Assembly: GCA_963705375.1 (NCBI GenBank)
Contig: OY970071.1
Span: forward strand, 930,001 to 962,000
Direction: 5' to 3'
Source of the DNA: Candidatus Saccharimonadota bacterium
GTDB lineage: Archaea > Micrarchaeota > Micrarchaeia > Micrarchaeales > Micrarchaeaceae
Length of the DNA: 32,000 nt
Numbering within the stretch: the stretch's first letter is position 1; every line of letters starts with the position of its first letter. Under the pieces are notes generated by a model. That model had not been told where the DNA came from, did not search any database, and saw only the letters and a program-made list of their open reading frames with translations. Both the position numbers and the translations under genes were made by a program. This document shows positions 13,450-24,171 of this stretch, in pieces.

Positions 13450-15243
13450 ATGATTCTTGTTCTTATGATCGACAGAAACTTTGACCCTACAAAAGGCAAA
13501 GAGTCTAGAAATTCGCAAGATCCTATTTCGGAAATATTGCGCGACGAAGCAGAAGAGCAACATGACAGTGCAGCATCTGTAGTCGAAGATCAGACGAATC
13601 AAGACAAGAAAATACGGCTGCTAAACGACCACGACATTATTGTTTCTGCATCAGATTTTGTCTTAGACGCGAGTTTGGTGACTCTAACTGAGAATGTCAA
13701 AACTTTAGAAGACAACCACCTTCCCCTCGATAAGTCAATAGAAGTCCTACGCTCCGATCCCCAGCGCCTAAGAGACAACATCCAGACCCTCACAGCCAAC
13801 CACCTCCCTCTCGACCAGTCGATAGCAGTCCTGGGCTCCGACCCCCAGCACCTGAGAGACAACATCCAGACCCTCACCGACAGCCACCTTCCCCTCGATA
13901 AGTCAATAGAAGTCCTACGCTCCGATCCCCAGCGCCTAAGAGACAACATCCAGACCCTCACAGCCAACCACCTCCCTCTCGACCAGTCGATAGCAGTCCT
14001 GGGCTCCGACCCCCAGCACCTGAGAGACAACATCCAGACCCTCACCGACAGCCACCTTCCCCTCGATAAGTCAATAGAAGTCCTACGCTCCGATCCCCAG
14101 CGCCTAAAAGACAACATCCAGACCCTCACCGACAACCACCTCCCTCTTGATCAGTCGATAGAAGTCCTAGGCTCCGACCCCCAGCGCCTAAAAGACAACA
14201 TCCAGACCCTCACCGACAACCACCTCCCTCTTGATCAGTCAATAGAAGCCCTAGGCTCCGATCCCCAGCACCTAAAAGACAACATCCAGACCCTCACCGA
14301 CAACCACCTCCCTATTGATCAATCGATAGAAGTCCTGATGTCCGACCCTCAGCACCTAAGAGACAACATCCAGACCCTCACCGCCAACCATCTTCCCCTC
14401 GACCAGTCGATATTCGTCTTGGGCTCAGATCCCCAGCGCCTAAAAGACAACATCCAGACCCTCACAGCCAACCACCTCCCTCTTGATCAGTCGATAGAAG
14501 TCCTACGCTCCGATCCCCAGCGCCTAAGAGACAACATCCAGACCCTCACAGCCAACCACCTCCCTCTCGACCAGTCGATAGCAGTCCTGGGCTCCGACCC
14601 CCAGCACCTGAGAGACAACATCCAGACCCTCACCGACAGCCACCTTCCCCTCGATAAGTCAATAGAAGTCCTACGCTCCGACCCCCAGCACCTAAGAGAC
14701 AACATCCAGACACTCACAGCCAACCACCTTCCCCTCGATAAGTCAATAAGCGTTCTAAGCTCCGACCCCCAGCGCCTAAAAGACAACATTCAGATTTTCC
14801 GAGCAAACAGTCTTCCCATCGCCCATTCGATATCCGCTCTAAGTGCCGATCCTGCCCGTATAAAAAAGAACATCACTCTATTATCCGAGCATAATGTTTC
14901 TCTCACCAAATCAATCCGGGTTCTGACTGGCGACCCTGTGCACGTCGAAGAAAATATCGCGACGCTGGAGGCTAGAGAAATAGATTTCGCAAAAGCAACT
15001 GATGTTTTACGTGCAAATCCCGGACATTTGAGGGAGAACATCGTGACTTTGGATGCCGCTGAAATCGATTTTACCAATACGGTTTCTGTCCTAAATGCAA
15101 ATCCAAAGTCCCTTAAGGAAAACATCCAGACCCTGATCAGTCTGGGAATGAACCCCTCAGAGTTCCCGCAACCGTCCCTTCTTAAGTACTCGCCCAAACG
15201 ATTTAGAAAGGCCTTGGCGGAATTGATGGCTATTTCTGTATGA
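13450..15243 (+). CDS. 28-aa-repeat alpha-solenoid-like protein, paralogue 1 (597 aa; 13 canonical + 4 degenerate repeats + cap)
   Basis: A single long ORF with a unique acidic N-terminus (no signal peptide), 13 in-frame repeats of NIQTLT[AD][NS]HLP[LI]D[QK]SI[AEFS][VA]L[GRMS]SDP[QR][HR]L[RK]D, then 4 degenerate repeats and a C-terminal cap. The periodicity and pattern are mTERF-like. An alternative start is Met-6 at 13465. Confidence 0.85.
   Translation: MILVLMIDRNFDPTKGKESRNSQDPISEILRDEAEEQHDSAASVVEDQTNQDKKIRLLNDHDIIVSASDFVLDASLVTLTENVKTLEDNHLPLDKSIEVLRSDPQRLRDNIQTLTANHLPLDQSIAVLGSDPQHLRDNIQTLTDSHLPLDKSIEVLRSDPQRLRDNIQTLTANHLPLDQSIAVLGSDPQHLRDNIQTLTDSHLPLDKSIEVLRSDPQRLKDNIQTLTDNHLPLDQSIEVLGSDPQRLKDNIQTLTDNHLPLDQSIEALGSDPQHLKDNIQTLTDNHLPIDQSIEVLMSDPQHLRDNIQTLTANHLPLDQSIFVLGSDPQRLKDNIQTLTANHLPLDQSIEVLRSDPQRLRDNIQTLTANHLPLDQSIAVLGSDPQHLRDNIQTLTDSHLPLDKSIEVLRSDPQHLRDNIQTLTANHLPLDKSISVLSSDPQRLKDNIQIFRANSLPIAHSISALSADPARIKKNITLLSEHNVSLTKSIRVLTGDPVHVEENIATLEAREIDFAKATDVLRANPGHLRENIVTLDAAEIDFTNTVSVLNANPKSLKENIQTLISLGMNPSEFPQPSLLKYSPKRFRKALAELMAISV
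13693..14784 (+). repeat. Array of 13 near-identical in-frame 84-bp units (coding)
   Basis: An 84-nt period is visible directly, for example caaccacctccctctcgaccag at 13797 and cagccaccttcccctcgataag at 13881. The coding strand is C-rich and G-poor (37 C against 15 G in a representative unit). Confidence 0.95.
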
Positions 15244-15252
15244 TGCCGATTT

Positions 15253-15624
15253 ATGCCGTTTGGTGTGTCTGCGTCTTGCCTATTAGACCAATGCGTAAAA
15301 CCTTTTATTGATTGTTATCCATACGGTATCGTGGTGACCATGGCCGCACTGTCCATCAGCAGCACACTCCTGGGAGAGATCGTACTCATAGCGCTGATAG
15401 CGGTCGTTCTGTTCATCATATTCAAGCTGGGCAAGTTCTTCTTCAAGCTTATCTTTGGAATATTAGCGAATAGCATATTGGGTCTGATAGCGATATTTGT
15501 TCTAAACGATTTCCTGAATTTCAGCATACCGATAAGTTTTGCTACGATGGTTCCAACAGCGATATTCGGTCTGCCTGCCGTGGGCACTCTTGTGATACTG
15601 CGCTTCTTCGGAATACCCCTCTGA
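15253..15624 (+). CDS. BofA-like small integral membrane protein, copy 1
   Basis: The gene starts 9 nt after the repeat-protein stop. The C-terminal half ANSILGLIAIFVLNDFLNFSIPISFATMVPTAIFGLPAVGTLVILRFF resembles the BofA family pattern (..N.....I.iP.N..T......LG.PG...L...) as I recall it. An alternative start at 15340 (MAALSISS..., preceded by ggtga) would give a BofA-typical ~94 aa. Confidence 0.65.
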   Translation: MPFGVSASCLLDQCVKPFIDCYPYGIVVTMAALSISSTLLGEIVLIALIAVVLFIIFKLGKFFFKLIFGILANSILGLIAIFVLNDFLNFSIPISFATMVPTAIFGLPAVGTLVILRFFGIPL

Positions 15625-22199: not shown

Positions 22200-22377
22200 A
22201 CAATCACTTCTGGCTTATATAAGTGGAAAGGCTTAAAAGTCTGGCACTCCTGTGCGCATTAGCGGAAGTTTGGCAACGTCTGAACTACAGAGCGTTAAGA
22301 CGCTTTTAGGATTTAAGATTAACGACTTTTGTCCTCAGCCCTCCAAAAAGATACCTATTTATATGTAAAAAGGCAAT
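22200..22377. promoter_or_regulatory. Divergent intergenic region (histone 3, and repeat-protein gene 4)
   Basis: The TATA elements are at 22215-22222 and 22356-22365. This is the same sequence as the other two copies. Confidence 0.5.
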
Positions 22378-24171
22378 ATGATTCTTGTTCTTATGACTGA
22401 CAGAAACTTGGACCCTACAAAGGGCAAAGAGTCTAGAAATTCGCAAGATAATATTTCGGAAATATTGCGCAGCGAAGCAGAAGGGCAACATGACAGTGCA
22501 GCATCTGTAGTCGAAGATCAGACGAATCAAGACAAGAAAATACGGCTGCTAAACGACCACGACATTATTGTTTCTGCATCAGATTTTGTCTTAGACGCGA
22601 GTTTGGTGACTCTAACTGAGAATGTCAAAACTTTAGAAGACAACCACCTTCCCCTCGATAAGTCAATAGAAGTCCTACGCTCCGATCCCCAGCGCCTAAG
22701 AGACAACATCCAGACCCTCACAGCCAACCACCTCCCTCTCGACCAGTCGATAGCAGTCCTGGGCTCCGACCCCCAGCACCTGAGAGACAACATCCAGACC
22801 CTCACCGCCAACCATCTTCCCCTCGACCAGTCGATATTCGTCTTGGGCTCAGATCCCCAGCGCCTAAAAGACAACATCCAGACCCTCACAGCCAACCACC
22901 TCCCTCTCGACCAGTCGATAGCAGTCCTGGGCTCCGACCCCCAGCACCTGAGAGACAACATCCAGACCCTCACCGACAGCCACCTTCCCCTCGATAAGTC
23001 AATAGAAGTCCTACGCTCCGACCCCCAGCACCTAAGAGACAACATCCAGACCCTCACAGCCAACCACCTCCCTCTCGACCAGTCGATAGCAGTCCTGGGC
23101 TCCGACCCCCAGCACCTGAGAGACAACATCCAGACCCTCACCGACAGCCACCTTCCCCTCGATAAGTCAATAGAAGTCCTACGCTCCGACCCCCAGCACC
23201 TAAGAGACAACATCCAGACCCTCACAGCCAACCACCTCCCTCTCGACCAGTCGATAGCAGTCCTGGGCTCCGATCCCCAGCGCCTAAAAGACAACATCCA
23301 GACCCTCACCGACAACCACCTTCCCCTCGACCAGTCGATAGCAGTCCTTATGTCCGATCCCCAGCGCCTAAGAGACAACATCCAGACCCTCACAGCCAAC
23401 CACCTCCCTCTCGACCAGTCGATAGCAGTCCTGGGCTCCGACCCCCAGCACCTGAGAGACAACATCCAGACCCTCACCGACAGCCACCTTCCCCTCGATA
23501 AGTCAATAAGCGTTCTAAGCTCCGACCCCCAGCACCTGAGAGACAACATCCAGACCCTCACCGACAGCCACCTTCCCCTCGATAAGTCAATAAGCGTTCT
23601 AAGCTCCGACCCCCAGCACCTGAGAGACAACATCCAGACCCTCACAGCCAACCACCTTCCCCTCGATAAGTCAATAAGCGTTCTAAGCTCCGACCCCCAG
23701 CGCCTAAAAGACAACATTCAGATTTTCCGAGCAAACAGTCTTCCCATCGCCCATTCGATATCCGCTCTAAGTGCCGATCCTGCCCGTATAAAAAAGAACA
23801 TCACTCTATTATCCGAGCATAATGTTTCTCTCACCAAATCAATCCGGGTTCTGACTGGCGACCCTGTGCACGTCGAAGAAAATATCGCGACGCTGGAGGC
23901 TAGAGAAATAGATTTCGCAAAAGCAACTGATGTTTTACGTGCAAATCCCGGACATTTGAGTGAGAACATCGTGACTTTGGATGCCGCTGAAATCGATTTT
24001 ACCAATACGGTTTCTGTCCTAAATGCAAATCCAAAGTCCCTTAAGGAAAACATCCAGACCCTGATCAGTCTGGGAATGAACCCCTCAGAGTTCCCGCAAC
24101 CGTCCCTTCTTAAGTACTCGCCCAAACGATTTAGAAAGGCCTTGGCGGAATTGATGGCTATTTCTGCATGA
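22378..24171 (+). CDS. 28-aa-repeat alpha-solenoid-like protein, paralogue 4 (597 aa; 13 canonical repeats)
   Basis: Same length as paralogue 1 but with a different module order, including three consecutive SISVLS-type units at its end. It is not followed by a BofA-like gene. Confidence 0.85.
   Translation: MILVLMTDRNLDPTKGKESRNSQDNISEILRSEAEGQHDSAASVVEDQTNQDKKIRLLNDHDIIVSASDFVLDASLVTLTENVKTLEDNHLPLDKSIEVLRSDPQRLRDNIQTLTANHLPLDQSIAVLGSDPQHLRDNIQTLTANHLPLDQSIFVLGSDPQRLKDNIQTLTANHLPLDQSIAVLGSDPQHLRDNIQTLTDSHLPLDKSIEVLRSDPQHLRDNIQTLTANHLPLDQSIAVLGSDPQHLRDNIQTLTDSHLPLDKSIEVLRSDPQHLRDNIQTLTANHLPLDQSIAVLGSDPQRLKDNIQTLTDNHLPLDQSIAVLMSDPQRLRDNIQTLTANHLPLDQSIAVLGSDPQHLRDNIQTLTDSHLPLDKSISVLSSDPQHLRDNIQTLTDSHLPLDKSISVLSSDPQHLRDNIQTLTANHLPLDKSISVLSSDPQRLKDNIQIFRANSLPIAHSISALSADPARIKKNITLLSEHNVSLTKSIRVLTGDPVHVEENIATLEAREIDFAKATDVLRANPGHLSENIVTLDAAEIDFTNTVSVLNANPKSLKENIQTLISLGMNPSEFPQPSLLKYSPKRFRKALAELMAISA
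22621..23712 (+). repeat. Array of 13 in-frame 84-bp units (coding)
   Basis: Counted from the translation. The array ends where NIQIFRANS begins (aac at 23713). Confidence 0.95.

Follow-up and report, generated by a model that had tools for sequence, protein, structure and literature searches.

Helical-repeat proteins that read nucleic acids are the closest described counterparts of the products of four tandem genes found in a 32,000-nucleotide stretch of DNA from a Micrarchaeota (DPANN) archaeon (assembly GCA_963705375.1, contig OY970071.1, positions 930,001 to 962,000 of the forward strand), the whole of which is called here the window. Among such proteins, the mTERFs are basic, eukaryotic and organelle-targeted, and read DNA via a few arginines and base flipping, with no per-unit code; the units of the PPR and PUF proteins comprise 35-36 amino acids (aa). 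The bacterial STAR proteins, similar to the TAL effectors (TALEs), and the bacterial mTERF-like pTERF proteins have been shown, in the cases characterised, to bind DNA in vitro, several of them sequence-specifically, and pTERFs differing in the arrangement of their repeats gave different DNA motifs in SELEX experiments (Hu et al. 2024, PMC11417379). The pTERFs were found mostly in Bacillota, have 3-11 units with annotated mTERF motifs and no reported archaeal member, while pTERF1 was placed under a 35-aa period (TR_35_C32_2) (Hu et al. 2024, PMC11417379). The searchable literature yielded no TALE-like or mTERF-like protein from Archaea or DPANN. These genes encode proteins with 13-25 helical modules of 28 aa each, and they are tentatively considered here, with a probability somewhat short of an even chance, as TALE/mTERF-like modular readers shuffled by recombination, whose ligand would most likely be a nucleic acid, DNA in the first place and RNA in the second.

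The four open reading frames (ORFs) are paralogous, intact and arranged in tandem on the plus strand, and each was cut in a 28-aa register from residue 82. In this register paralogue A (13450-15243, 597 aa), whose translation was also modelled as a solenoid, is composed of an acidic N-terminus of about 53 aa, a degenerate unit designated unit 0, 13 canonical units of 84 bp (13693-14784; module order GABABHDIEJABF), four degenerate units and a cap. Paralogue B (16006-18807, 933 aa) carries 25 canonical units (16249-18348; GAACMABNABDIEJAAHDCABBKCF), paralogue C (19570-21615, 681 aa) carries 16 (19813-21156; OHDCKPDCABAEJQIF), and paralogue D (22378-24171, 597 aa) carries 13 (22621-23712; GAEABABACALLF). 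The first-pass annotation of this DNA, made from the letters only, had counted 67 canonical units (13+25+16+13; 5628 bp) between 13693 and 23712, and exactly these were recovered by the register parsing; its statement that the module order is different in every paralogue is likewise borne out by the unit strings. Tandem Repeats Finder gave the same 84-bp period, with scores of 1487-2912. Some multi-unit blocks occur in more than one gene, for instance DIEJ, which A has in common with B, and HDC, which B has in common with C.

The canonical arrays contain 24 distinct units at the amino-acid level, 29 at the nucleotide level and 17 core types (positions 12-20), including all ten core types that had been listed before. 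In the 63 internal units the substitutions are restricted to positions 7, 8, 12, 14, 17, 18, 20, 24, 25 and 27, in agreement with the earlier reading; the invariance of the other positions was found as described there, although they number 18 rather than 19, and the first unit of every array, which is an N-cap variant, deviates further at positions 2, 3 and 6 (plus 13 in paralogue C). Of the ten variable positions, eight are polar and lie outside the core, and the remaining two, 12 (L/I) and 18 (V/A), show conservative core changes. Four states are taken by each of positions 17 (E/A/F/S) and 20 (G/R/M/S), as the first-pass annotation had it. In the comparison between units, the nonsynonymous divergence (dN) at the 18 scaffold codons is zero at a synonymous divergence (dS) of 0.41-0.43, and at positions 17 and 20 dN reaches 0.72-0.81, with dN/dS of 2.5-3.4 at positions 7, 8 and 14, these figures being biased upward by the choice of positions known to vary and drawn from non-independent units, which are mosaics of few haplotypes. 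The 18 scaffold positions are under complete purifying selection, and the unit variation is neither chance nor neutral drift; equal dN and dS at all positions, the pattern of neutrality named in the earlier annotation, was not seen. The codons in use at position 17 (GAA/GCA/TTC/AGC) and position 20 (GGC/CGC/ATG/AGC) differ at 2-3 bases, which points to repeated replacement at these two sites. Amino-acid replacements accumulate chiefly there, with 7, 8, 14, 24, 25 and 27 as secondary sites.

The amino-acid variants are not combined freely and travel instead as few haplotypes with tightly linked synonymous markers, recombined into new mosaic units. Such few haplotypes and mosaic units are also in keeping with another explanation, according to which unequal crossing-over generated the arrays as a by-product devoid of module-level specificity; the protein would require no more than a solenoid of a certain length, and the variable sites would be merely the least constrained ones on its surface, at which old polymorphisms are reshuffled by recombination. 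The restriction of positions 17 and 20 to 8 of their 16 possible combinations, the resemblance of D7/K14 and E17/R20 to compensating pairs, the computation of dN/dS on positions chosen as variable, and the fact that the relatives of these proteins are also most variable at 17 and 20, as relaxed constraint predicts, all fit it. This explanation is, however, rather improbable, since the four long ORFs are intact, with dN = 0 at 18 of the 28 positions despite a dS of about 0.4, the multi-step codon changes are limited to two codons, relatives of only about 40% identity draw on the same small alphabets at positions 17 and 20, and the paralogues have coexisted for long, the N-terminal proportion of synonymous differences (pS) being 0.34-0.39.

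The genes were found also in two other assemblies of the same population, independent and noisy (ENA ERZ25039473 and ERZ25039486, designated L010 and L011), in which the A-type and C-type N-termini are identical to those of the window and the arrays are different: the A-like array reads GABQIJ (6 units vs 13 in the window) and the C-like array O-CABABBABHDCABABQIJ (19 units vs 16). As shown by both the paralogues and the samples, the arrays evolve by unequal and intra-unit recombination, through which modules are reordered, duplicated and deleted. In L011 the C-like gene is followed by an IS66-family transposase, and in L010 an abrupt junction lies inside an array; a frameshift in the first unit, common to L010 and L011, splits the C-like gene by a C-run one base shorter (GACCCCAG vs the canonical GACCCCCAG) and is probably a homopolymer error. 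Highly similar tandem repeats are difficult to assemble, and it might be supposed that the window arrays were produced by misassembly or belong to pseudogenes in decay, the more so as frameshifts and an abrupt in-array junction occur in these two assemblies and the exact window protein sequences are missing from the protein collection. Against this stand the four uninterrupted ORFs of 597-933 aa in one register, the purifying selection on the scaffold codons, the independent recovery of the A-type and C-type N-termini and of the same modules, and the nature of the shared frameshift, a one-base difference in a C-run typical of homopolymer errors, so that an artefact or decay is very hard to credit.

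The best AlphaFold2 (AF2) model of paralogue A, with a mean predicted local distance difference test score (pLDDT) of 83.8, is an alpha-solenoid with a regular helix pattern repeated every 28 residues, in which positions 23-28 and 1-7 form a long helix and positions 13-18 a short one, the loops between them falling at 8-12 and 19-22. The search of the PDB by Foldseek with this model returned 13 significant matches (E from 7e-9 to 6e-4), each being a DNA-bound TAL effector, the TALE-like BurrH or human MTERF1. The TALE-type matches include AvrBs3 (2ypf, E = 6.8e-9), PthXo1 (3ugm, 3.2e-7), BurrH (4cja, 9.2e-6) and dHax3 variants (3v6p, 1.2e-4), and those of MTERF1 the chains 3mva, 5crk, 5cky, 3n6s and 3n7q, with E from 8e-5 (3mva) to 6e-4 and TM-scores of 0.41-0.50 on the target; the PDB matches that come next, to designed helical repeats, have an E no better than about 0.09, and among viral structures Foldseek gave no significant match. 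According to the DSSP assignment of the model, position 20 lies in the loop from the short to the long helix, before the S-D-P helix cap, and position 17 in the final turn of the helix that precedes this loop. Position 20 in the model would thus correspond topologically to the site of the repeat-variable residues of TALE, as a predicted exposed loop residue, with position 17 one turn earlier.

Paralogue A has a single match among 5.8 billion proteins, namely P0001 from a Micrarchaeota bin (E = 3e-65, 40% identity), which contains 11 divergent 28-aa units. The unit profile gave 22 matches in 1.84e9 representatives, of which about 8 are true relatives, and the family profile retrieved 12 members from 5.8e9 proteins, the named ones being all 'Candidatus Micrarchaeota archaeon'. 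The family collected in this way (P0001, P0005, P0006, P0010, P0013, P0014 and P0026-P0033) appears to be rare, judging from the sequence searches, with about 15-20 members in billions of proteins and with named members in Micrarchaeota only, and the four window genes would represent its species-specific expansion. The window proteins show a significant profile match to this family over the units N-I-x-T-L-E-x-x-x-L-P-x-x-x-S-I-x-V-L-x-S-x-P-x-x-L-x-x and the cap motif. A typical relative comprises an N-terminal 'EFxxFLVKEFGM' module, 2-4 (up to 11) divergent units, the same cap and a C-terminal 'EQxAFxEIG' domain, and is basic, with an isoelectric point (pI) of mostly 8.3-9.3 and of 9.6 in the repeat region of P0001. 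In 26 units taken from the relatives the highest entropies fall on position 17 (2.84 bits) and position 20 (2.69 bits), with residues that overlap the window alphabets (S/E/A at 17 and R/G/M at 20). The gene neighbourhoods of the relatives show no conservation. No family was revealed by Pfam when A, B, the degenerate C-terminal region, P0001 and the relatives were scanned, the matches being only spurious coiled-coil ones (MIP-T3_C, CENP-F), which result from the repeat periodicity. The design logic of a modular reader, ascribed to the arrays by the first-pass annotation, is sustained by the structural matches to TALE, BurrH and MTERF1 and finds no counterpart in sequence membership, be it in TALE, in mTERF or in any Pfam family; the window proteins resemble TALE and mTERF in predicted fold and architecture and fail the sequence membership in both.

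The metagenome and viral scans yielded no further expanded arrays, and one candidate for such an array, L009, turned out to be a false positive. The AF2 model of the short relative P0026 (pLDDT 80) has non-significant matches to MTERF4 and TALE. The assignment of the C-terminal domain of the relatives to a known DNA-binding domain was rejected, the P0026 model having no significant PDB match, with a weak hint of PadR at E = 0.04. In P0001, residues of about 400-764 (about 11135-12230 of L001) contain two copies of the C-terminal 'F.YL...L...E.KAF..IG' domain, which has no Pfam model. Two K/N/I-rich proteins, P0020 (608 aa) and P0022 (675 aa), with repeats of about 29-31 aa of the type 'idl.kC.sVLa.G....i..ii..L', match the unit profile weakly (E = 4e-6 and 5e-5; hhalign probability 77%) and may form a distant sister repeat family, possibly bacterial.

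A modular reader of nucleic acid would be favoured by the TALE, BurrH and MTERF1 matches of the model, by the selection pattern at the scaffold and at positions 17 and 20, by the high entropies and overlapping alphabets of these two positions in the relatives, by the basic nature of the relatives, by degenerate units at both array ends as in TALEs, by the shuffled module orders and by the DNA binding of STAR and pTERF proteins. If the arrays are modular readers, the following mechanism may be proposed. The array would serve as the ligand-reading surface, each module giving one recognition element; position 20 would be the counterpart of the TALE repeat-variable residue, buttressed by position 17, and the basic residues at positions 25 and 27 might contact the backbone. 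By their differing module orders the four paralogues would have different targets, roughly 19-31 units long, located either in the own genome or in the genome of the host of this episymbiotic DPANN archaeon. The strict version of this mechanism, that is, a programmable archaeal counterpart of the TAL effectors that evolved independently and reads one base per 28-aa module by a code of position 20 plus position 17, with module shuffling, is unlikely. A simple one-to-one code within the window was dropped as a candidate, its matches in the window being no better than in shuffled sequence.

A number of observations weigh against the reading of nucleic acids by these arrays, and they concern the model, the sequence and the chemistry of the proteins. 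The input alignment of AF2 for paralogue A consisted of 4 sequences, and the other four models had a pLDDT of 53-73. Low TM-scores (0.25-0.50) were obtained against TALE and MTERF1, the query being itself a predicted model, and it may follow from them that the superhelix geometry of A is unsuited to a duplex. The sequence searches of the PDB with one protein, with the family profile and with the unit profile found nothing, neither a TALE nor an MTERF chain; the mTERF family PF02536 gave no match even at E up to 10, and the TAL effector repeat profile had no Pfam match. The search of the 32-kb window for targets at one unit per base, by position 20 or position 17, with 24 base mappings and in both orientations, gave no result above shuffled. 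The variable positions form two clusters at opposite helix ends (7/8/14 and 17/20/24/25), and some of their covariation, of D7 with K14 and of E17 with R20, resembles charge compensation. Further, the proteins of the window have an acidic pI of 5.0-5.3 and carry a net charge from -29 to -47, or some -1 to -2 for each unit, with D13, D22 and D28 invariant in their units and the lysines that the relatives have at positions 3, 7, 8 and 28 absent, and they do not possess the N-terminal module and the C-terminal domain of the relatives, ending right after the cap.

The same properties may be accounted for by a ligand of another kind: the fold would be as described, and the arrays would bind a protein or another basic partner that is not a nucleic acid, with a hypervariable surface diversified in an arms race or in host recognition, like that of variable leucine-rich repeat (LRR), ankyrin or ARM arrays; as a variant of this explanation, the proteins might act as acidic mimics or decoys. 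A ligand of this kind is regarded as possible and still doubtful. It would agree with the acidity of the window proteins (pI about 5.1) as against the basic relatives, with the loss of both terminal parts typical of the family (the N-terminal module and the C-terminal domain), with the location in a variable chromosomal spot, at which the closest genome has nothing and the next closest has unrelated genes, with the IS66 transposase adjoining the gene in the other assembly, and with the variation of array length and order by sample; the excess of dN over dS at a few exposed positions fits any ligand-driven diversification. It is opposed by the fact that every significant structural neighbour binds nucleic acid and that the sequences of A-D have no visible signal peptide or membrane segment, and, by analogy with what is generally known of TALE, PPR and PUF, modules that are nearly identical, have one or two multi-state positions and stand in a reshuffled order would be more typical of readers of the one-module-one-letter type than of solenoids that bind proteins.

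The proposal of a modular nucleic-acid reader has several consequences. If the arrays do read nucleic acids, no TALE/mTERF-like modular reader would have been described in Archaea before them. Their 28-aa unit is smaller than those of TALE (33-35 aa) and of PPR/PUF (about 35-36 aa), and under the strict version of the mechanism it would provide a new, smaller designer-binder scaffold for DNA or RNA. The proposal, if true, would suggest that genomes are targeted sequence-specifically in the biology of DPANN symbionts, and the four paralogues together with the population variants make a natural test series for any code. Even without nucleic-acid binding, the locus presents a clear solenoid array with full scaffold conservation, two hot positions and ongoing shuffling.

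The other parts of the genes are conserved to a different extent. The four degenerate units and the C-terminal cap follow the canonical array in each paralogue on the plus strand (14785-15240 in A, 18349-18804 in B, 21157-21612 in C and 23713-24168 in D), and this common ending, recognized already in the first-pass annotation, has only 0-3 aa differences among A-D and pS = 0, i.e., it is homogenised. The cap motif 'NPSEF...LL.YSP..F' is common to the window proteins and their relatives. The degenerate unit 0 (KIRLLNDHDIIVSASDFVLDASLVTLTE) precedes the array (13609-13692, 16165-16248, 19729-19812 and 22537-22620, all on the plus strand), and retains, by direct reading, I2, L5, S15, V18, L19 and L26 of the unit consensus. 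The N-terminal 81 aa of paralogue C have diverged from those of A, B and D (pS 0.34-0.39). A conserved TATA-like element, CCTATTTATATGT, lies on the plus strand 13-25 nucleotides 5' of the first ATG of each gene (13425-13437, 15982-15994, 19546-19558 and 22354-22366); its nearness to the first ATG suggests a leaderless or near-leaderless mRNA, provided that it acts as a promoter. Since the position of the box puts the transcription start probably near or after the first ATG, the true start of A may be the second ATG (M6, 13465), the message being leaderless.

A leucyl-tRNA synthetase (LeuRS) gene and the gene of a Hel308-type helicase, which has the archaeal domain 4, flank the cluster, and the nearest named relatives of the window LeuRS, at 60-65% identity, are Candidatus Micrarchaeota or Micrarchaeia. 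Directly upstream of A, the archaeal RNase P RNA is encoded on the minus strand (13072-13302; RF00373, 89.7 bits, E = 8e-24), at the position that is filled ahead of B, C and D by a histone-containing spacer. A small membrane ORF of 123 aa (15253-15624, 18817-19188 and 21625-21996, plus strand; PF07441, E = 5.5e-9) begins 9 nucleotides after the stop of each of A, B and C, and is similar to BofA, known from Bacillus sporulation; its third copy is diverged (pS 0.24, with 0.07 for the nonsynonymous proportion, pN). The paralogues are therefore not all recent, as both the N-terminus of C and this third BofA-like copy show. Each inter-cassette spacer contains also an archaeal histone gene of 58-65 aa on the minus strand (15630-15827, 19194-19391 and 22002-22199; PF00808, E = 1.2e-9). 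The three histone copies differ by one residue (S/T), the relatives having a single copy at the syntenic site, and the tandem duplication has thus tripled the histone gene dosage.

In the two closest genomes (LeuRS identity of 78% and 75%), the same site is made up of the genes of LeuRS, a HAD hydrolase, BofA, histone, Hel308 and LamG, with BofA (left without annotation in the second genome) and histone present once each, and it contains no repeat gene. A single BofA-histone pair kept at a site with no repeat gene means that the extra BofA and histone copies of the window are passengers of the duplication, and a functional link of the repeat proteins to the histone was rejected on the same ground. 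BofA and histone are ancestral residents, whose extra copies are no evidence of function, and the repeat genes are a lineage-specific insertion into a variable spot. This spot, between the HAD hydrolase and the BofA-histone-Hel308 block, extends over 10177-24245 in the window, 12896-14415 in L007 and 12896-19263 in L008; it is empty in L007, holds three minus-strand genes of unknown nature in L008, and is occupied in the window by the repeat cluster together with genes for a TPR protein and for a protein of 417 aa of unknown nature. The gene of the 417-aa neighbour (11767-13020) was considered as an ancestral member of the family and rejected, its sequence being unrelated. The 121-aa ORF after D (24168-24533, plus strand) shows no relation to the BofA-like ORFs, runs into the 3' end of the helicase gene on the minus strand and is probably not a gene. 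Further downstream on the plus strand are a large Laminin_G_3 (concanavalin-like) protein (26438-29263), with syntenic LamG genes in L007 and L008, and a very acidic ORF of 604 aa (29847-31661, pI 4.3), which may belong to the LamG set; both could be surface or adhesion proteins.

In comparison with the known systems, the TAL effectors and TALE-likes (AvrBs3 and PthXo1 of Xanthomonas, BurrH/Bat of Mycetohabitans, the marine MOrTL, STAR) give the best structural matches of the paralogue A model. Both groups have tandem near-identical helix-loop-helix modules, hypervariability concentrated, for the window units by prediction, in and beside the loop from the short to the long helix, degenerate units at each end, similar array lengths (about 19-31 units), paralogues that differ in module order, and evolution by recombination of their repeats. 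However, the TALE unit has 33-35 aa vs 28 aa here, there is no detectable sequence similarity and the host here is archaeal; the variable residues of TALE are adjacent (12 and 13), whereas the main ones of the window units are three apart (17 and 20), with further sites at 7, 8, 14, 24, 25 and 27; and unlike TALE, the window repeats are acidic and the proteins have no recognisable secretion signal, nuclear localisation signal or activation domain. With the mTERF family (human MTERF1-4, plant mTERFs, PF02536), the likeness consists in the matches to MTERF1-DNA complexes (E of about 8e-5, TM-score of 0.5 on the target), in a unit length of about 30 aa, in the make-up of the unit from one long and one short helix plus a brief 3-10-like turn, and in the resemblance of L..(L)P....I..L...P..L to the mTERF motif, read by eye and unscored; the mTERF motifs are, in contrast, divergent and few (about 8), while the window units are strictly tandem and near-identical. 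The PPR and PUF proteins have other folds and are absent from the structural matches of A, but the concept of one helical module per nucleotide, with few specificity positions on an invariant scaffold, is theirs as well. The pTERFs are set apart from the window proteins by their description (a period of 35 vs 28 aa, bacterial vs archaeal origin), and nevertheless, as prokaryotic tandem helical repeats with a predicted mTERF-like fold, they offer a precedent for the mechanism proposed here.

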